Shown here: positions 1,212 through 8,116 of the stretch, one piece after another
Numbering within the stretch: the stretch's first letter is position 1
Layout of the letters: each line of letters opens with the position of its first letter
Assembly: GCA_018829905.1 (NCBI GenBank)
Contig: JAHJST010000005.1
Location: forward strand, 1-61,213
Length of the DNA stretch: 61,213 nt
DNA from: Patescibacteria group bacterium
Lineage (GTDB): Bacteria; Patescibacteriota; Minisyncoccia; RBG-13-40-8-A
Reading direction: 5' to 3'
Program-made: the position numbers and the translations under genes
The notes under the pieces: model-generated
What the model saw: only the letters and a program-made list of their open reading frames with translations
The model's database searches: none
Told to the model about the DNA's origin: nothing

Positions 1212-2624
1212 TCACCCCTCCTCAGATTCATATCTATAAAGATCATTAATCATCCATTTGAGAGTTTCCTTGGCGTGTATACAAAAAATATCATCTAAAG
1301 CAAGAATGCTACCATGTCGAAAATCAGCTCGAGCAGGACAACCGCCACCACAGATACCTAAAACAATACAATCTAAACACTGAGGCATTGTAAGCGGTGA
1401 ACGTTTTGCCCACCCAATAAAATCATTGTTTGTATAAGGTGAGAATTTTGAGTCAGGAATGGAAAAAAACTTCTTACTTAGAATATATGCTTGACACATT
1501 CCAACTTCGCCAGACGGAAGAAAAACAACTTGTCTTCCACAACCACCACAATCATAAGGATAAATTTTTTTATCCACAAAAGAATCTATCTTACGCATCA
1601 TTCTATTTTCATGTATTCCATTTTCTCTCAAAAATTCAAAACATCTAATCATTTCTTTTGTGGCAATCTCTGCATATTCAGAAGAAGAAATTATTCTCTC
1701 TGCACTATCCATTAATAGATTAAGTCCTATTCCTTTTGGTTCAAACTTCTCTATTAGCCATTGAACGTGCTTCAATAAATTTTTTACACTGCTTGGTGTT
1801 ATGGTTATAGACAAACTAAACTCAACACCAACAGATTTTAAAGTTTCACAACCTGTTCTTGTCTTCTTAAATGATCCATTGCCACCAGGAAAGCATCGAT
1901 ATTCATCATTGACTTTAGGCATACCATCTACAGATATACCAACTAAAACATTATAGTCTTTCATAAAAGAAGCAATGTTTCTATCAATCAATGTTCCGTT
2001 TGTAATAACACTTATCTCTAAATCTTCTGGTAATAACTTTTTCTTTTTCAGGATATGCATATGCTTAATCGCCAAACAGAATGCTTCTTTGTTCAATAAT
2101 GGCTCTCCACCATAAAGAATAACTGTTTTATTTTTTGAAACAGATTCAGAAGTCCATTTAGCAAAAAAATTAAGCGATTGTCTTACAACACCAGAAGACA
2201 TAAAAGAAAAATTATATTTCGTATCAATATCTTGTCTAACAAAACAGTATCGACATCTTAAATTACAAGCATCTGTCAAAACCAAATATGCCATATTGAT
2301 TACTGGATTTCTTAAATAGTTTTTTTGATAACCATTAAGCTCTTTGCCTTCATTACACGAAAGTGGTACAAGCATTTTAAACTCTATTAGTCTTTCTACA
2401 AGGGAGAAGAAAGATTTTTTCTCAGAAAAATCCAATTCTTTTTGCATAATTATATAACTAATATTTTTTCCGGTTTTAAACTCAGAAACTAATTCGAGCG
2501 CTCTCGCAGAAAGAAAAACTGTTTCAATCGTAAGAGAATGGAATAAAGCTATATATTCTTTCTCTTTTAAAATGTGTAAAAATCTAGAAAATCTTAAGGG
2601 CAGGTTAATAATTTCTTTAATCAT
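1212..2624 (-). CDS. radical SAM / SPASM-domain peptide-modifying enzyme (470 aa)
   Basis: CX3CX2C triad in LTDACNLRCRYCF. The C-terminus has auxiliary-cluster cysteines (CGGCGRQ...MCQA) and the SPASM signature CLDCIVLGICGGGC (CX2CX5CX3C). An approx 110-aa N-terminal extension precedes the rSAM core. GGAG lies 8 nt upstream of the ATG. Confidence 0.85.
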   Translation of the reverse strand: MIKEIINLPLRFSRFLHILKEKEYIALFHSLTIETVFLSARALELVSEFKTGKNISYIIMQKELDFSEKKSFFSLVERLIEFKMLVPLSCNEGKELNGYQKNYLRNPVINMAYLVLTDACNLRCRYCFVRQDIDTKYNFSFMSSGVVRQSLNFFAKWTSESVSKNKTVILYGGEPLLNKEAFCLAIKHMHILKKKKLLPEDLEISVITNGTLIDRNIASFMKDYNVLVGISVDGMPKVNDEYRCFPGGNGSFKKTRTGCETLKSVGVEFSLSITITPSSVKNLLKHVQWLIEKFEPKGIGLNLLMDSAERIISSSEYAEIATKEMIRCFEFLRENGIHENRMMRKIDSFVDKKIYPYDCGGCGRQVVFLPSGEVGMCQAYILSKKFFSIPDSKFSPYTNNDFIGWAKRSPLTMPQCLDCIVLGICGGGCPARADFRHGSILALDDIFCIHAKETLKWMINDLYRYESEEG

Positions 2625-2638
2625 CAGTATATCTCCTT

Positions 2639-2670
2639 AAAAAAATTTGGGGGGATTAAGTCCCCCCAGT
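2639..2670 (-). terminator. intrinsic terminator/attenuator hairpin between the peptide gene and the rSAM gene
   Basis: Minus strand reads GGGGGG-ACTTAAT-CCCCCC followed by AAATTTTTTT, which runs straight into the rSAM ribosome-binding site (AAGGAG). Confidence 0.55.
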
Positions 2671-2687
2671 CCACGAAAATTCGAATC

Positions 2688-2852
2688 TCAATAATAGTCA
2701 TCACACTTGCAAGGACAGGGGCTCCTACAAACCCTACTATCACCACCGCTTAAAAGCTCCTGTTGAGAAGGAATATTTCCTCGAATTTTCTCTCTGTTCT
2801 TCTTGGATGATGTTGACCATTCAATCACTAATTTGGTATCTTTTTTCTTCAT
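2688..2852 (-). CDS. 54-aa Cys-rich candidate precursor peptide (not in the supplied ORF track)
   Basis: Hand translation: MKKKDTKLVIEWSTSSKKNREKIRGNIPSQQELLSGGDSRVCRSPCPCKCDDYY, stop TGA. GGAG lies 6 nt upstream of the ATG. It is the first gene after a consensus-like promoter and sits directly upstream of the rSAM/SPASM gene. Confidence 0.65.
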   Translation of the reverse strand: MKKKDTKLVIEWSTSSKKNREKIRGNIPSQQELLSGGDSRVCRSPCPCKCDDYY

Positions 2853-2990
2853 TTTTTACTCCATTATCACCTATCTTATTGTATAAATTTGTCTAAATAG
2901 ACACAAAGATAGAATCTATATCAATATTCACTGAAAATCAGCAAATTAAATTATAAAAGAACACTAAAAGAACGTTTAACACACATTATT

Positions 2991-3019
2991 AATATACTGC
3001 TTTTAAAATCCCTTGTCAA
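2991..3019 (-). promoter_or_regulatory. sigma70-type promoter of the peptide operon
   Basis: Minus strand TTGACA (3019-3014), N17, TATATT (2996-2991). This predicts an approx 130-nt 5' UTR before the peptide ATG. Confidence 0.55.
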
Positions 3020-3022
3020 GTT

Positions 3023-5287
3023 TTAATCAACTATATACAAAGAATTAATAAATTTATCATATTCTTCTTTAAAATTAGGATCTATTTGAACTGCTTTATC
3101 AGCAGCTTGTCTTGCTTTATCAAATTGCCCCATATGAGCATAAGCAGCTGCTAATGAAGCATACATTTGAGCGCTTTCTGGTTCTTGTTGCACACCTAAT
3201 TCATATAATCTAGCAACCATATCATATCTCTGTGCTTTTTCAAATATTTTAACCATTCTTAATAATTCAGTTGTATTTGTTTCAAAATCCTTCCATCCTA
3301 ATTCTAATGCCTTATTAAGCGCTTCAAGCGCTTCTTCGTTTTTATCAGCAGCACTAGCAGAAACAGCTGTAAACCACCAAGACAATGAAACTTCTGGATT
3401 TAATTCTGCAGCTGTTTTAAAACTATTATATGATTCTTCATATTCTTTTATTGACATTTGTGCTTGGCCTAATTCATACCAAATCCTAGGATTTCTTTTA
3501 TTTAATTCTAATGCCTTATTAATAGAAGCTAATGCTTGATTAGCTGCTTCTTGCCCATCTTTTTCAATTAATAAAATATACATTCTTCCAACGTATAGAT
3601 ATGGAACAGTGTCTAAAGGAAATCTTTCAATGTTTTTACTTACTATTTTAATTGAAAAATATAAAAGGCTTGGATCAAAATCTCCTTGTTTTTGTTTCAT
3701 TGTTTCTGCAAGCTGAATTGCAAATGTAGCTAGTTTGTGCCTTATTTCATAAGCTCCTTCTGGAACTGGATTACATATAAATTCATTATTTTCTCTTTTA
3801 CAATTTAAAGCTTCTTGGTATTTATCAACTGCTTTTTGAGCATTACCTGCTCTTCCTGCTAATATTGCTCTTGTTGTACTAAAATTAGCTTGAGATGATC
3901 TAATATTTGTTTGAAAAATTAAAATTACAGCTAGGATTAATAAAATAACAATTAAGAATGTTGATGGATATTTTTTTTCTCTTAATGGCTCTATCTTTTT
4001 ATTATTTGTTTTTAAATAATAAACATATGCTAAAACCATAAAGAATAAAAAGTAATTTACAAATGTATCGAAAATAAAAAGATTTTGTATAAAGTATGCA
4101 ATAATCATTGCTGAAAAAACACCAAAAGTAATTTTACCAATTCTTTTAGATTTGAATTTTTTAATCAAAACAATAAACATTGATACAAATATTGATAAAT
4201 AGCTTAATAAACCAACAGCACCCATTGTTGATAAAGCATTTAAAGGAACATTATGAGCTCTGTCCCAAATAGTTTCTGATCCAACATGAGTAAAATGACG
4301 AGCATCAAAATGCTTCATATGAAGAACTGAAAAATTCTCAGGACCCCAACCAAAGATTGGTCTTTCTTTCCATCCTTCAATTGCGCTTGTCCATGACCAA
4401 ATTCTAGTCTGAAGAGTATCTGAATCTAAAGAAAGGCTTGTTATTCTGTCTAGCCAACTAATGTTTTTTACCCATGTACTATTTTTACCAATAAAGGCAA
4501 AAGTAAAAAAAAGAACAAAAATTAAAATTGCAATAATTAAAGATATTTTTAATTTTTTATTCTTTGAAGCAAAAACAAAAAATAGAGCTAAAAGAATTAT
4601 TGTTATAAAAAAAGACAATATTGCTCCCCTAACAGCTGTCATTAATAAAACTGGAATTCCTAAAATTAAAACAATAGAATAAAATCCTTTTTCTCTAATA
4701 TCTGTTTGTTTTTTTAATAAAAACCAAAGAGCTAAATAAAGTATAAAAAGAAGGTAACCAGCAAATAACGCAGGATTACCTATTGTTCCAATTACCCTTT
4801 CTCCGTGTTGCCAACCAACAAAAAAACTACCAAGTCTTAATCTTTGTCCATAAGCAAATAAAATTGAAAGAAAACCAACAAAAGTTGTAATTTTTAATAT
4901 TTTATTCCAGTCTAATTTTATTCTAATAATACTAATCAGAATTACAAAATATACCCAAAAGTGTATAAAAGAAAAAATACCACCCATTCTTTCTATGCTT
5001 CCCCACATACTACTAAAAAAATTAACTCCAATTAATCCAGTAAAAATATATAAACCAGTATAAGCAGTAAAACTAATTAAAATTAAATTCCATTTTGGCC
5101 TATATCTTTTATCAATAATTATTAAAAGAATATAGAAAACAGCCATTAATTCAACCAATGATCTAAATAAAATCATTTTACCAAAATGAAATGGTGATAA
5201 ATGTTGAGAAAAAACTACTAATGGCAAAAACAAAGAAACATATACTCCCCAACGAAGTATTTTATTCAAATTTTCAGAAGTTATCAT
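3023..5287 (-). CDS. O-antigen ligase/polymerase-like (Wzy_C) polytopic membrane protein with C-terminal TPR repeats (754 aa)
   Basis: More than 10 TM helices. Motifs GTIGNPALFAGYL and RPIFGWGPENF...H. The C-terminal approx 250 aa are TPR-like (ALELNKRNPRIWYELGQAQ, YASLAAAYAHMGQFDKARQAADKAVQIDPNF). Start set at ATG 5287 (MITSENL...); the longer track ORF reads through a GC-rich RNA element. Confidence 0.8.
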   Translation of the reverse strand: MITSENLNKILRWGVYVSLFLPLVVFSQHLSPFHFGKMILFRSLVELMAVFYILLIIIDKRYRPKWNLILISFTAYTGLYIFTGLIGVNFFSSMWGSIERMGGIFSFIHFWVYFVILISIIRIKLDWNKILKITTFVGFLSILFAYGQRLRLGSFFVGWQHGERVIGTIGNPALFAGYLLFILYLALWFLLKKQTDIREKGFYSIVLILGIPVLLMTAVRGAILSFFITIILLALFFVFASKNKKLKISLIIAILIFVLFFTFAFIGKNSTWVKNISWLDRITSLSLDSDTLQTRIWSWTSAIEGWKERPIFGWGPENFSVLHMKHFDARHFTHVGSETIWDRAHNVPLNALSTMGAVGLLSYLSIFVSMFIVLIKKFKSKRIGKITFGVFSAMIIAYFIQNLFIFDTFVNYFLFFMVLAYVYYLKTNNKKIEPLREKKYPSTFLIVILLILAVILIFQTNIRSSQANFSTTRAILAGRAGNAQKAVDKYQEALNCKRENNEFICNPVPEGAYEIRHKLATFAIQLAETMKQKQGDFDPSLLYFSIKIVSKNIERFPLDTVPYLYVGRMYILLIEKDGQEAANQALASINKALELNKRNPRIWYELGQAQMSIKEYEESYNSFKTAAELNPEVSLSWWFTAVSASAADKNEEALEALNKALELGWKDFETNTTELLRMVKIFEKAQRYDMVARLYELGVQQEPESAQMYASLAAAYAHMGQFDKARQAADKAVQIDPNFKEEYDKFINSLYIVD

Positions 5288-5294
5288 AAGATAA

Positions 5295-5300
5295 ATTATA
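5295..5300 (-). promoter_or_regulatory. -10 box TATAAT placed 7 nt upstream of the Wzy_C/TPR ATG (leaderless-type arrangement)
   Basis: Minus strand reads TATAAT-TTATCTT-ATG. No SD is present, and it lies just downstream of the ncRNA terminator. Confidence 0.35.
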
Positions 5301-5321
5301 TAGTATATATAAATCTTGTGC

Positions 5322-5536
5322 AAATAAAAGGAGGGGCCCATTATTAGACCCCTCAGGAAACCCACGGCGTGGATATCGCCAGACCTATCGCTGGCTTTTG
5401 GCCAAATCCGTTTTGCGAAGAAAGGACCTAAGGGCCTGTGCGCATAGCACTCCAAGGTGCTCAGATAATGGCACGATCCACACATCCTATTGGCAGGAAA
5501 GAAGAACCTGCCGACTAATCGCAATTTCAGCGTACT
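5322..5536 (-). ncRNA. unclassified structured GC-rich RNA (approx 215 nt)
   Basis: My hand count gives 105/200 G+C for 5331-5530, against very AT-rich flanks. It has its own promoter upstream and ends in GAGGGG...CCCCUC + UUUUAUUU. Several local hairpins are present (GGCAGG-N9-CCUGCC, AGCAC-CUUGGA-GUGCU, GCCAG-N8-CUGGC), plus a possible long-range GUGUGGAU/AUCCACGC helix. Confidence 0.6.
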
Positions 5537-5542
5537 AATACT

Positions 5543-5570
5543 ATCATATTATATTAACAAAAATTGTCAA
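5543..5570 (-). promoter_or_regulatory. sigma70-type promoter of the GC-rich RNA
   Basis: Minus strand TTGACA (5570-5565, overlapping the TGA stop of the hydrolase gene), N16, TATGAT (5548-5543). Confidence 0.5.
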
Positions 5571-6373
5571 ACTTTTTTTAAAAACTCAACTAAATCTTTT
5601 ATATATTTTCGCACTACACTTGGCTTTTCAAGATCATGATCCCCTTCTTTAATAACAAGAGTTTTTATTTTTTCAGTAAGATCGTAATTACTTTGTATTG
5701 GAACTTTATCATCATTTAATCCATGAATAATCAACATGTTTTTAAAATCAATTTTTAATGATTTTAAAATATCCTGATAATCAACATTTACATTTTCTAA
5801 AAAATATTGATTTGAAATAATATGTTCTTTTATTTCTCTTTCTTCTATTTGAATATATTTATCAAATTCATTTATTGTATTTGAATCAATATATTCTTTA
5901 AAATTATTCCATGTTATTTCTTTTTCTTTAAATTTTGATTTTACAAACCAATATTTTTGTAATTCTTTTTGATTAAGCGCTGGTGCAAAAAATACAATTT
6001 TAGAATTTTTAAAGCCAATATTGTTTTCTAAAAATTTTACAACAATTGCACATCCCAAACTATGAGCAATAAAAGAAATTTCATTAATTTTAAATTTTTT
6101 TTTAAATATCTCTGTTGCTATTTTTAATTCTTTTGATAATTTCTGAACTGTAAAATCTTCAAAATCACCATCTGATAAACCAGATCCAGAAAAATCAAAA
6201 AGAAAAGAATAATATTTTCCTTTAATTTCGTCTATAATATTCTTAAATTTCTTTTCACATGATTTTCTCTCAAATCCATGAACAAAGATTATTCCTTTTT
6301 TTTCTTTTCCTCCAAAAACAACACCCCTTAAGATTTGTTTTTTCTGATTTTTAAATTCTAATGCTTTAAACAT
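5567..6373 (-). CDS. alpha/beta-fold hydrolase (esterase/lipase-like)
   Basis: Oxyanion region GIIFVHGF, nucleophile elbow IAHSLGC (GXSXG-type), later IIHGLNDDKVP and GDHD consistent with a Ser-Asp-His triad. Confidence 0.7.
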   Translation of the reverse strand: MFKALEFKNQKKQILRGVVFGGKEKKGIIFVHGFERKSCEKKFKNIIDEIKGKYYSFLFDFSGSGLSDGDFEDFTVQKLSKELKIATEIFKKKFKINEISFIAHSLGCAIVVKFLENNIGFKNSKIVFFAPALNQKELQKYWFVKSKFKEKEITWNNFKEYIDSNTINEFDKYIQIEEREIKEHIISNQYFLENVNVDYQDILKSLKIDFKNMLIIHGLNDDKVPIQSNYDLTEKIKTLVIKEGDHDLEKPSVVRKYIKDLVEFLKKV

Positions 6374-6421: not shown

Positions 6422-6679
6422 TTAATTATTTTCAGCTTCTTTTTCCATTTTATCTAATCTAGTATAATAATCTGAAATTTCTTTTAAGTGAGCTAATGCA
6501 ATTTTTCCAGTTATTATTTCATCATCATTAGTAACATTTGTTTGAGAATCACATAAACCATGTTCTAATTCAACTCTTAATCCCATTCTAAATTCTTCTA
6601 AATTATACTTATTCCAATCAATTCCAATACTATCACCTATTTTTTTAGCCTCTTCAGTTGTGAATTCTTTTAATTTCAT
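6422..6679 (-). CDS. small conserved soluble protein (DUF5661-like, recollection only)
   Basis: 85 aa. The motif string LEEFRMGLRVELEHG...TNVTNDD...IALAHLKEISDYY resembles a small family seen in phages and uncultivated bacteria. Confidence 0.45.
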   Translation of the reverse strand: MKLKEFTTEEAKKIGDSIGIDWNKYNLEEFRMGLRVELEHGLCDSQTNVTNDDEIITGKIALAHLKEISDYYTRLDKMEKEAENN

Positions 6680-6975
6680 AAAAGTATTATTAATAAAATT
6701 AATATAATAGTTATTAAAGAAAACAATAAAGTAAATCCTAAAACAAATAATGATTCCTTTATTTTTTTATGAAGACATAAATATATTGGATAACCAAAAA
6801 CAATTAAACCAACAACTGCTGATGAAAAAACCAATAAAATCAATATTGCAACAGAAACTAAAAATATTGAATTTGGATTAAATCCATCTACAAACTGAAG
6901 TAAGCTGCTTATTAACAAAACATATATTGTTACTCCAATTGCCTGGAAAAGGCCTATTAAAAATAATTTTTTCAT
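6676..6975 (-). CDS. small 3-TM membrane protein (99 aa)
   Basis: Hydrophobic throughout. Start moved to ATG 6975 (MKKLFLIGLF...); the track start at 7026 is TTG inside a promoter. Confidence 0.5.
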   Translation of the reverse strand: MKKLFLIGLFQAIGVTIYVLLISSLLQFVDGFNPNSIFLVSVAILILLVFSSAVVGLIVFGYPIYLCLHKKIKESLFVLGFTLLFSLITIILILLIILL

Positions 6976-7019
6976 AAAGTTTGAGTTGTTTATTATAAAT
7001 AAATTATACCACAAATAAT

Positions 7020-7047
7020 TTGACAAAACATATTAATAATATATACT
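7020..7047 (+). promoter_or_regulatory. sigma70-type promoter of small RNA A
   Basis: TTGACA (7020-7025), N16, TATACT (7042-7047), with +1 expected near 7054-7056. Confidence 0.55.
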
Positions 7048-7054
7048 TAGATAT

Positions 7055-7145
7055 AAGCCGGATCAATCCCAATTCCCAATCCCGTTTTGTCCCCAAAACC
7101 AGATTAAGGAATTGCTTGCTGACTGCAAGGGTCCGGCTTTTTTTT
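7055..7145 (+). ncRNA. small RNA candidate A (approx 90 nt)
   Basis: 10-bp closing stem AAGCCGGAUC/GGUCCGGCUU followed by U8. Internal helices are CAAUUCC/GGAAUUG, AAUC/GAUU and GUUUUG-UCCC-CAAAAC, with a side hairpin CUUGC-UGACU-GCAAG. It lies between two minus-strand genes. Confidence 0.55.
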
Positions 7146-7150
7146 AAAAC

Positions 7151-7179
7151 CGCCACGCATATTGCGAGGCGATTTTTTT
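7151..7179 (+). terminator. second hairpin plus T-tract after small RNA A
   Basis: CGCC-A-CGCA-TAT-TGCG-A-GGCG followed by A-T7. A-rich on the 5' side, so possibly bidirectional. Confidence 0.45.
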
Positions 7180-7453
7180 AATCAATCTTACATATTCTAT
7201 CTTCAAAAATCCAATTATCTAAATAATACATTGTGTAAACTAATTCCATATAATATATAATCTCTATTTTTTTGTACTTTTACTATAGCAAATCTTAATT
7301 CAGAAACAACTTTCTGTCTTTCTTTATAATAAGCAATAATCCTACACATGTTACAGCTCGCACATTCACACAAGATAGCCAATAAATATAAAAACCGTAT
7401 CAAGAATAGTATTTATAATATTAATAAACTAATTATTATTTTCATCTTTTTTA

Positions 7454-8116
7454 CTATATAAATTTTAAAATTTCCTTTAAATCTTTTTTATCAACAACAA
7501 CATTTGCTTTTTGCTTAACTTCATCACTCTTAGAATTAAAAGCAATAAAAAATCCAGCTTCTTCTGCCATTGGAATATCTGTAATAGAATCTCCAATAAC
7601 TGTTACATTTTCTTTAGATAAATTCAATTCTTTCATTTTTTCTTTTAAAATATCAACTTTTATAAATCTATCTATTTTTCTGAAAATTTTACCAGTAGCT
7701 ACGTTATCCTTAAATTCTATTTTTAAACCAAAAACAAAATCTAAATCAAGAATATCATTCAATGCATCAAGAAGAAATTGTGGGCCTGAGCTTATTGCTC
7801 CAACTAAAAATCCTCTTTTTTTTATTTCACGAATAATATTCTTAGCGCCCATCATTAAATTTTTATTACAATAATCAATAGAAATCTTGGTAAATTCTTC
7901 TCTAGAAAAACCCTTACATAATTCTACCAAATTTTCTAATCCCCACGGACCAAGATGTTTTCTTTTTTGATATTCTTCATTTATTTTATTAACATCTTCT
8001 TCTTTCCCAAGAAAAGTTAAAATGTCTTTAAAACCACCAAAAACAACATTCAATAAAACACCTTCGACGCCGAAAAAAACCAATTTAGATTTTCTATTTG
8101 TAATTAAAGTTTTCAT
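7454..8116 (-). CDS. HAD-superfamily (phosphoserine-phosphatase-like) protein with a degenerate motif I
   Basis: Motif II-like VGAISSG and motif IV GDSITDIPM are present. Motif I reads VFFGVEGVL instead of hhhDxDxT. Start placed at ATG 8116; the track start at 8155 is TTG. Confidence 0.6.
   Translation of the reverse strand: MKTLITNRKSKLVFFGVEGVLLNVVFGGFKDILTFLGKEEDVNKINEEYQKRKHLGPWGLENLVELCKGFSREEFTKISIDYCNKNLMMGAKNIIREIKKRGFLVGAISSGPQFLLDALNDILDLDFVFGLKIEFKDNVATGKIFRKIDRFIKVDILKEKMKELNLSKENVTVIGDSITDIPMAEEAGFFIAFNSKSDEVKQKANVVVDKKDLKEILKFI

Follow-up and report, generated by a model that had tools for sequence, protein, structure and literature searches.

The window analyzed here is a stretch of DNA 61,213 nucleotides (nt) long from a Patescibacteria group bacterium (contig JAHJST010000005.1 of assembly GCA_018829905.1, positions 1 to 61,213). 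Its minus strand carries, between the gene for an alpha/beta hydrolase and a downstream gene whose product has Wzy_C and TPR domains, a short GC-rich island that is the subject of this report. A first-pass annotation, made by a model from the letters of the window, had described the island as the gene for an unclassified structured RNA of about 215 nt, with a promoter and a terminator of its own. The analysis described below points, tentatively, to an accessory small RNA (sRNA) unit that is restricted to one species and that would also serve as the 3' untranslated region (UTR) of the hydrolase mRNA.

The locus and its transcription signals

The genome to which the window belongs amounts to 641 kb in 27 contigs, is 96% complete and has a GC content of 28.3%. 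Segments of 200 nt taken genome-wide have a mean GC fraction of 0.283 with a standard deviation of 0.058, and only 0.3% of them reach 0.50 or more. The stretch 5331-5530 contains 105 G+C in 200 nt, and with a GC peak of 0.53 the island ranks among the top 0.3% of the genome. This matches the rRNA and tRNA genes and exceeds the values for RNase P RNA (0.39) and transfer-messenger RNA (tmRNA; 0.29).

The island is bracketed by transcription signals (Table 1). A consensus scan of 4800-6200 returned TTGACA-16-TATGAT as its top promoter-like site. The TGA stop codon of the hydrolase gene (5569..5567) falls inside the -35 hexamer of this promoter (5570..5565). Alignment with a strain that lacks the island showed that the hexamer is host sequence, present in that strain as well, and that the inserted segment contributes both spacer and -10 box. 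At the other end, the terminator hairpin (5354..5331) has 10 bp, six of them G-C, with a 4-nt loop, and CTTTTATTTG comes next; the scan picked out two terminator-like sites in the region versus 0.4 expected. The island's terminator is the only one downstream of the hydrolase gene, and this predicted signal has to end the hydrolase mRNA too.

The promoter of the Wzy_C gene begins directly after the U-run of the island, and the ATG that it serves lacks a Shine-Dalgarno sequence. The same promoter sequence is found in strains with and without the island, and the leaderless layout (TTTGCA, 17-18 nt, TATAAT, 7 nt, ATG) occurs at 5285-5324 (minus strand) in the window, at 4345-4388 in the closely related strain L034 and at 4318-4359 in the more distant relative L033. 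Conservation of this layout in L033, whose neighboring gene has only 66% amino acid (aa) identity, supports real leaderless initiation. An open reading frame (ORF) of 833 aa that starts at TTG 5524, in a minus-strand frame open from 5548 into the Wzy_C gene, would place the start of that gene within the island. However, the extra 79 N-terminal residues of this ORF match no Pfam family, the public gene calls give the 754-aa form in all cases, and the Wzy_C genes of relatives begin at the same ATG. The start of the Wzy_C gene is ATG 5287, which has a conserved leaderless promoter to itself; this makes the 833-aa ORF an artefact, and the gene model should be shortened to 754 aa.

Much of the first-pass annotation is thereby borne out. 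Its hand count of G+C was reproduced exactly, and its description of the genome as AT-rich is correct; the minus-strand promoter and the terminator that it proposed were both recovered by the scans; the TATAAT that it placed 7 nt before the Wzy_C ATG is there, with TTTGCA at 18-nt spacing; and it had rightly taken the 833-aa ORF for a read-through product. Its view of the island as an independent promoter-to-terminator unit rather than a leader is also supported, with the signals in place and the Wzy_C promoter retained where the island is missing.

Table 1. Positions of the genes, signals and predicted RNA features at the island (window coordinates)
Feature	Position	Strand	Remarks
Alpha/beta hydrolase gene, 268 aa	5567..6373	minus	Upstream of the island, which would form its 3' UTR in island-bearing strains
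Sigma-70-type promoter, TTGACA-16-TATGAT	5570..5543	minus	Consensus scan, 11/12 matches
-10 box, TATGAT	5548..5543	minus	16 bases past TTGACA
Strain-variable segment, 234 nt	5330..5563	minus	Replaced by ~34 nt in L034
Putative transcript, ~215 nt	5322..5536	minus	Predicted start 7 nt past the -10 box; predicted end at the U-run
GC-rich body, 182 nt, 52% GC	5355..5536	minus	Between predicted start and terminator
Hairpin GGCAGG/CCUGCC, 6 bp, loop UUCUUCUUU	within 5355..5536	minus	Predicted fold
Multi-branch domain closed by GUGGAUCG/CGAUAUCCAC	within 5355..5536	minus	Predicted fold
Intrinsic terminator, GAGGGGUCUA-AUAA-UGGGCCCCUC then CUUUUAUUU	5322..5354	minus	Consensus scan
Wzy_C/TPR promoter, TTTGCA-18-TATAAT (5324..5295), 7 nt, ATG (5287..5285)	5285..5324	minus	Leaderless start

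Presence and absence of the island among strains

The distribution of the island was established by tracing the hydrolase through a protein collection and comparing the contigs that encode its relatives. Five assemblies, including that of the window, contain the island, and they represent two haplotypes. The haplotype of the window recurs without change in ENA ERZ27247117, and a second haplotype, with 97.5-97.9% identity to the window across the locus, is shared by three assemblies (GCA_018901235.1, ENA ERZ27247124 and JGI 3300020171). Because it is seen in independent samples (NCBI, ENA and JGI) and in two haplotypes, the island must be genuine DNA rather than an error of assembly.

Strain L034 (GCA_043826165.1) is without the island, and its flanks are 99.2% and 98.8% identical to those of the window over ~6.2 kb. 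The distance from the hydrolase stop codon to the Wzy_C ATG is 78 nt in L034 versus 279 nt in the window, and a plain terminator of ~34 nt, AATTTGACC-AGGGGACCCTAGTGGGACCCCT, takes the place of the 234 nt at 5563..5330. In reading order, L034 has the shared GTTTGACAA, then AATTTGACC-AGGGGACCCTAGTGGGACCCCT-TTTTTTATTTGCACAAG, and then the identical Wzy_C promoter. The island is also absent from L033, where a 70-nt gap again contains a plain terminator. The segment that differs thus takes in the -10 box and the terminator and excludes the -35 hexamer; neither terminal inverted repeats nor target-site duplications were found at the ends of the island.

Overall, L034 is nearer to the window than is the second island haplotype. 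The single-nucleotide polymorphisms (SNPs) of L034 cluster within ~800 nt of the site, and many of them are common to the second island haplotype. This clustering and sharing argue that the locus is a recombination mosaic, with presence and absence of the island segregating within the species. The L034 terminator does not derive from the island terminator by simple deletion, and the outgroup L033 has no island, which together favor the gain of a cassette in part of the species. The variability is not limited to the island. Downstream of the Wzy_C gene the L034 sequence diverges completely (15-85 mismatches per 200 nt below window position 3200), and its positions 6650-7807 hold a 216-aa gene and an acetyltransferase gene where the window, at ~1500-3000, has an operon for a Cys-rich peptide and a radical-SAM protein. 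That operon is therefore strain-variable as well, making this region a hot spot for accessory content.

Sequence constraint and coding potential

The two island haplotypes differ at 5 of 232 positions (2.2%). In the flanking genes, synonymous divergence between the same haplotypes is 6.3-7.5% and non-synonymous divergence 1.1-1.2%. Neutral change at the synonymous rate would have produced 14.6-17.5 differences in the island versus the five that are seen (Poisson P between 0.004 and 0.0005), so the island has diverged at one third of the synonymous rate. This slow divergence, together with the high GC content kept in a 28% GC genome, fits purifying selection.

Such constraint does not appear to be of the kind that acts on proteins. 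Across the GC-rich body each strand has one open frame, a combination found in ~1.4% of dinucleotide shuffles of 5331-5545. No Pfam match was obtained with four frames of the island. When the open minus-strand frame was compared by phmmer with 1.84 billion proteins, two marginal matches came back, both driven by internal repeats of the subject proteins, and the open plus-strand frame found nothing in metagenomes. At most two of the five SNPs are synonymous in any frame, and three of the five are non-synonymous in the frame that runs into the Wzy_C gene. A coding remnant was rejected on these results, with no Pfam match, no protein relative and no coding constraint in any frame. A mobile element was rejected as well: besides lacking terminal inverted repeats and target duplications, the island is single-copy, and neither the IS110 transposase family (PF01548) nor TnpB (PF07282) has a match in the genome.

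Known RNA families and homologues

No known RNA family accounts for the island. Rfam 15 gave no match anywhere in the window at the gathering score. At E<=10, a search of 5200-5700 gave no match within the island, riboswitch aptamers and intron families included, and one chance snoRNA match outside it. Nor did ARAGORN detect a tRNA or tmRNA in the window. As identities for the island, RNase P RNA and tmRNA were rejected, since the genome's copies lie at other loci (C16:7964-8297, 140 bits, and C23:16823-17171, respectively).

The RNA of the signal recognition particle (SRP) was the candidate favored at first, when its two models (RF00169 and RF01854) proved empty in all 13 genomes searched, namely that of the window and 12 relatives; in control genomes the two models scored in 12 of 14 and 11 of 14. 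PF00448, the family of Ffh and FtsY, was found in 14 of 14 control genomes and gave only P-loop-level matches in PilT-like ORFs among the 13; the DTAGR motif turned up only in ribosomal protein L31; and tblastn with an approximate E. coli Ffh sequence as query returned nothing below E = 1.7. With Ffh and FtsY absent from the genome and the 12 relatives, SRP RNA is not expected. A genome-wide regular-expression scan for the SRP helix 8 motif (AGG, short stem, GNRA loop, short stem, AGCA) placed none in the island, and SRP RNA was rejected. As an observation in its own right, the 13 genomes (G000, which is that of the window, G001-G008 and G011-G014; same family and order) yielded neither an SRP54-type GTPase nor an SRP RNA. 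It seems that this order of Patescibacteria lacks the SRP pathway altogether. If true, that would be an unusual loss, given the numerous membrane proteins of such a bacterium.

The other housekeeping candidate was 6S RNA (RF00013); neither the genome, window included, nor the genome's own family gave a match to it. It was rejected both on fold, the predicted island RNA being multi-branched with a self-contained 3' terminator, and on distribution, the island being absent from L034, L033 and 400 genomes of the class. In the sister family, sub-threshold 6S matches were detected in locus L027 at 1101-1252 (G011:C7, 42 bits) and locus L028 at 1501-1651 (G014:C1, 37 bits). These 6S-like RNAs, on the minus strand of the sequence shown, are 150-nt rods with paired ends, with TATAAT just upstream and a terminator downstream.

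Homologues of the island were sought more broadly. Against 60 relatives, BLASTN produced nothing beyond short chance matches, of which the best is a 20-mer within a coding region of G007, and no second copy was found in the island's own genome with blastn-short and nhmmer. A covariance model built from the five island copies recovered the window's own copy and nothing else among 400 class-level genomes, and its top foreign match among 39 relatives, searched with lax filters, had E = 0.8. Exact 20-24-mers of the island are absent from the GTDB species representatives, the JGI metagenomes and IMG/VR, and blastn against phage and plasmid collections gave nothing meaningful. The collection scans exclude records very close to the window's genome, and these negatives therefore concern more distant copies. 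The hydrolase protein, used as query against genome contigs, found no match; its more distant homologues (L040 and L041) have other neighbors and gaps of ~50 nt. Nor does the island accompany the Wzy_C genes of relatives.

The first-pass annotation had excluded SRP RNA, RNase P RNA, tmRNA and a cobalamin riboswitch by inspection, and these exclusions are upheld by Rfam, by the helix 8 scan and by the RNAs located elsewhere; the Rfam search that it proposed was run and matched no known housekeeping RNA. The second check that it proposed, a comparison of homologous intergenic regions in related genomes, came out the other way, with no conservation beyond one species and no covariation to assess. 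It had named just this outcome as one that would count against it. The slow divergence of the island keeps an accessory RNA the likeliest explanation even so.

A possible accessory small RNA and its rivals

We tentatively favor, at a little less than even odds, the interpretation that the island is an accessory, species-restricted unit for a small non-coding RNA of ~215 nt on the minus strand, which would double as the 3' UTR and terminator of the hydrolase gene. In this interpretation a 234-nt cassette sits between the hydrolase stop codon and the Wzy_C promoter, at the point where other strains have a plain terminator. The -10 box of the cassette would combine with the pre-existing host TTGACA at the hydrolase stop to form a near-consensus promoter, and its terminator would end both the small RNA and the hydrolase mRNA. 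The RNA could be made in two ways, either from its own promoter or as a 3'-UTR fragment of the hydrolase mRNA. Its likeliest mode of action would be regulation in trans through base pairing. Two copies of UUCUUC are present, one in the predicted 9-nt loop that the GGCAGG/CCUGCC hairpin encloses, the other in the predicted 14-nt loop of a GGUCC/GGAUU helix. A rough estimate from base frequencies, not a tool result, puts the expectation at ~0.06 copies in 182 nt, and these two pyrimidine-rich loops are candidate seed regions. Transcription, the RNA ends, the fold and any target or function are inferred from the sequence.

The evidence for such a unit begins with the promoter and the terminator, which are both strong and both correctly placed. 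The high GC content, the recurrence in five assemblies, the slow divergence and the three SNPs that preserve predicted minus-strand pairs add to it. The island has what is generally looked for in a trans-acting small RNA, namely a promoter of its own, an intrinsic terminator and no coding potential. The unchanged Wzy_C promoter in the island-less strain argues that the island is not the leader of that gene.

Folding provides no such encouragement. The whole unit (5315-5545) has a folding z of -2.49, which is due to the terminator hairpin, and the very negative free energy of the island is explained by its 52% GC. When the body (5355-5536) was folded by itself on the minus strand, z was -0.09, and 98 of 200 dinucleotide shuffles folded at least as well; the plus strand gave -1.51. 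The same procedure applied to known RNAs of this genome gave -5.3 for RNase P RNA, -4.2 for tmRNA and -2.3 for 5S rRNA. The word "structured" in the first-pass description must accordingly be dropped, and high GC in an AT-rich genome is not by itself a sign of a stable RNA fold. The minimum-energy and centroid folds are both multi-branched, with a self-contained terminator at the 3' end. The differences between haplotypes can be placed on this predicted fold. All five (at 5531, 5497, 5368, 5357 and 5346) are transitions. Three of them exchange G-C for G-U and so preserve predicted pairs, though on the minus strand only; of the other two, one falls in a loop and one breaks a weak 3-bp helix; at 5346, U to C between the haplotypes turns a G-U pair of the terminator into G-C. 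Four of the five SNPs are thus compatible with the fold versus 73% of all possible transitions, which is chance level and carries no signal.

Along with these folding results, three further points weigh against a small-RNA unit. The island is dispensable in L034, a strain with 99% identity. No homologue was found anywhere searched, so that there is no covariation to examine. Finally, recombination is evidently active here, and if it had recently carried the island from one haplotype to the other, the outcome could look the same as purifying selection.

The strongest rival explanation is that the island is functionless inserted DNA, a foreign, GC-richer fragment that entered by illegitimate or homologous recombination and whose signals are fortuitous or serve only to end the hydrolase mRNA. 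We consider this doubtful, though a serious possibility. It would account readily for an orphan without a homologue, for presence and absence among near-identical strains in a neighborhood so variable that the peptide operon downstream of the Wzy_C gene is also missing in L034, for folding stability at the random level and for a GC content foreign to the genome, and the open frame on each strand hints at former coding DNA. What it leaves unexplained is a divergence of one third of the synonymous rate, with GC kept despite AT-biased surroundings, and an AT-rich 5' part that places the -10 box exactly 16 nt from an existing -35 hexamer; moreover, no source was found among GTDB species representatives, JGI metagenomes, IMG/VR, phages or plasmids. 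An unlikely alternative is that the island is no independent gene and works in cis, as a 3' UTR element, on the stability or termination of the hydrolase mRNA. Its position between the hydrolase stop and the sole terminator downstream, where island-less strains have a plain terminator, suits this idea, but a near-consensus promoter would then be superfluous. As for a riboswitch or attenuator leader that controls the Wzy_C gene through the terminator, the arrangement of a promoter, a GC-rich element of ~180 nt, a terminator and a gene 35 nt downstream on the same strand does resemble transcription attenuation. Such a leader is nonetheless very improbable: the Wzy_C gene has its own promoter and leaderless ATG, which are the same where the island is missing and recur in the 66% relative; with no Shine-Dalgarno sequence at the ATG, a read-through transcript would be poorly translated; no Rfam riboswitch matches at E<=10; the island does not go with the Wzy_C genes of L034 and L033; and no antiterminator pairing was obvious by eye, no systematic search having been made.

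The idea of a divergent housekeeping RNA missed by Rfam, either SRP RNA or 6S RNA, drew on the empty SRP models in the genome and 12 relatives and on the lack of 6S RNA in the genome and its own family. It is close to refuted by the absence of Ffh and FtsY and of a helix-8-like motif, by the 150-nt rod of the sister-family 6S RNAs, and by the distribution, since an RNA with a housekeeping role would not be lacking in a 99%-identical strain and throughout the family. There is likewise very little probability in the remaining proposals, which are a coding sequence (an extension of Wzy_C or a small protein) and a guide RNA or remnant of a mobile element (IS110 bridge RNA, TnpB/IscB omega RNA or an intron fragment). 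The minus-strand frame open from 5548 into the Wzy_C gene speaks for the former, and a -10 box inside the element with the -35 hexamer outside recalls IS110 promoters, which are split across the element junction. Against coding stand the lack of any Pfam match, the repeat-driven nature of the marginal matches among 1.84 billion proteins, the three non-synonymous SNPs of five, a terminator inside the would-be ORF and the shared ATG of the relatives' Wzy_C genes. Against a mobile element stand a genome without PF01548 or PF07282, flanking genes for a hydrolase and Wzy_C, a single copy without terminal repeats or target duplication, and no intron family at E<=10.

An accessory small-RNA unit thus remains our preferred explanation, and the island would amount to no more than an accessory small-RNA gene of minor importance; it is no housekeeping RNA that the genome otherwise lacks. 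A bolder version is decidedly unlikely: an undescribed kind of accessory non-coding RNA cassette of Patescibacteria that replaces a terminator, joins a host -35 hexamer to its own -10 box, is swapped between strains by homologous recombination, and has its GC kept by selection for a tertiary fold or a protein partner beyond nearest-neighbor energy models. As a strain-variable candidate with signs of constraint, the island offers a usable test case, though it is a single orphan locus. The more useful outcomes are negative ones, in that the island is neither the "missing" SRP RNA nor the "missing" 6S RNA of this clade.

Other GC-rich and RNA loci in the window and genome

A different sRNA candidate lies nearby in the window, at 7055-7146 on the plus strand. 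It has a promoter at 7020-7047, a closing stem of AAGCCGGAUC/GGUCCGGCUU and a folding z of -5.7, with no Rfam match, and judged by predicted folding it is a stronger candidate for a structured RNA than the island.

Several other GC-rich stretches were noted in the genome. Locus L046 (G000:C24:27690-27885, plus strand) is a non-coding stretch of ~195 nt with 49% GC, directly upstream of a gene that starts with MKQKVEELIHELKHHVPFTIF. The product of that gene has a His-rich N-terminus and might be a membrane or metal-transport protein. Rfam gave no match for the stretch at E<=0.1, and its predicted folding (z +0.9) does not surpass that of shuffled sequence; an unknown leader is one possibility. 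Two further GC-rich islands, G000:C5:4594-4737 (plus strand) and G000:C10:6992-7240 (minus strand), prove to be small ORFs, one for a 47-aa Cys-rich peptide that ends in CQCCKPGPCSPKL and is followed by a strong terminator, the other for a hydrophobic protein of ~80 aa. Small genes in this genome can therefore be far GC-richer than the genome itself.

Weak matches to group I introns, below the gathering score, occur at G000:C12:15900-16650 (L044; 26 bits) and G000:C16:31600-31750 (L048; 23 bits). The 23S rRNA gene contains one of them, in its 3' end; the other is close to the end of a contig. Insertions in rRNA genes are described in bacteria of the candidate phyla radiation (CPR), and these weak matches fit that picture.

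Comparison with known systems

The island can be set beside four kinds of bacterial RNA. Its length is compatible with the large form of bacterial SRP RNA, and no other SRP RNA was detected in the genome, but the island lacks the helix 8 motif and the genome lacks Ffh and FtsY. It resembles 6S RNA in length class and in being GC-rich within an AT-rich genome, and no 6S RNA is otherwise detected in the family; however, it is not an end-paired rod with a central bubble, it is not conserved, and it is absent from a near-identical strain.

Closer parallels are found among regulatory RNAs. No literature on small regulatory RNAs of Patescibacteria (CPR) was found, and the field appears to be little studied. 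Species-specific trans-acting sRNAs with pyrimidine-rich loops, such as those of the RsaE/RoxS type, are known from Gram-positive bacteria. The island differs from RsaE/RoxS-type sRNAs in that its motif is UUCUUC rather than a C-run, in having no sequence or Rfam match and in its random-level predicted fold. It is like them in its stand-alone sigma-70-type promoter and intrinsic terminator, in a length within 100-250 nt, in a repeated C/U-rich motif of predicted loops and in its restriction to a species or to strains. The other parallel is with sRNAs derived from 3' UTRs and with variable 3' UTRs, the known examples of which come mostly from enterobacteria and staphylococci rather than from Patescibacteria. 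Like these, the island lies between a stop codon and a shared terminator, has an internal promoter at the end of the gene, and varies among close strains.

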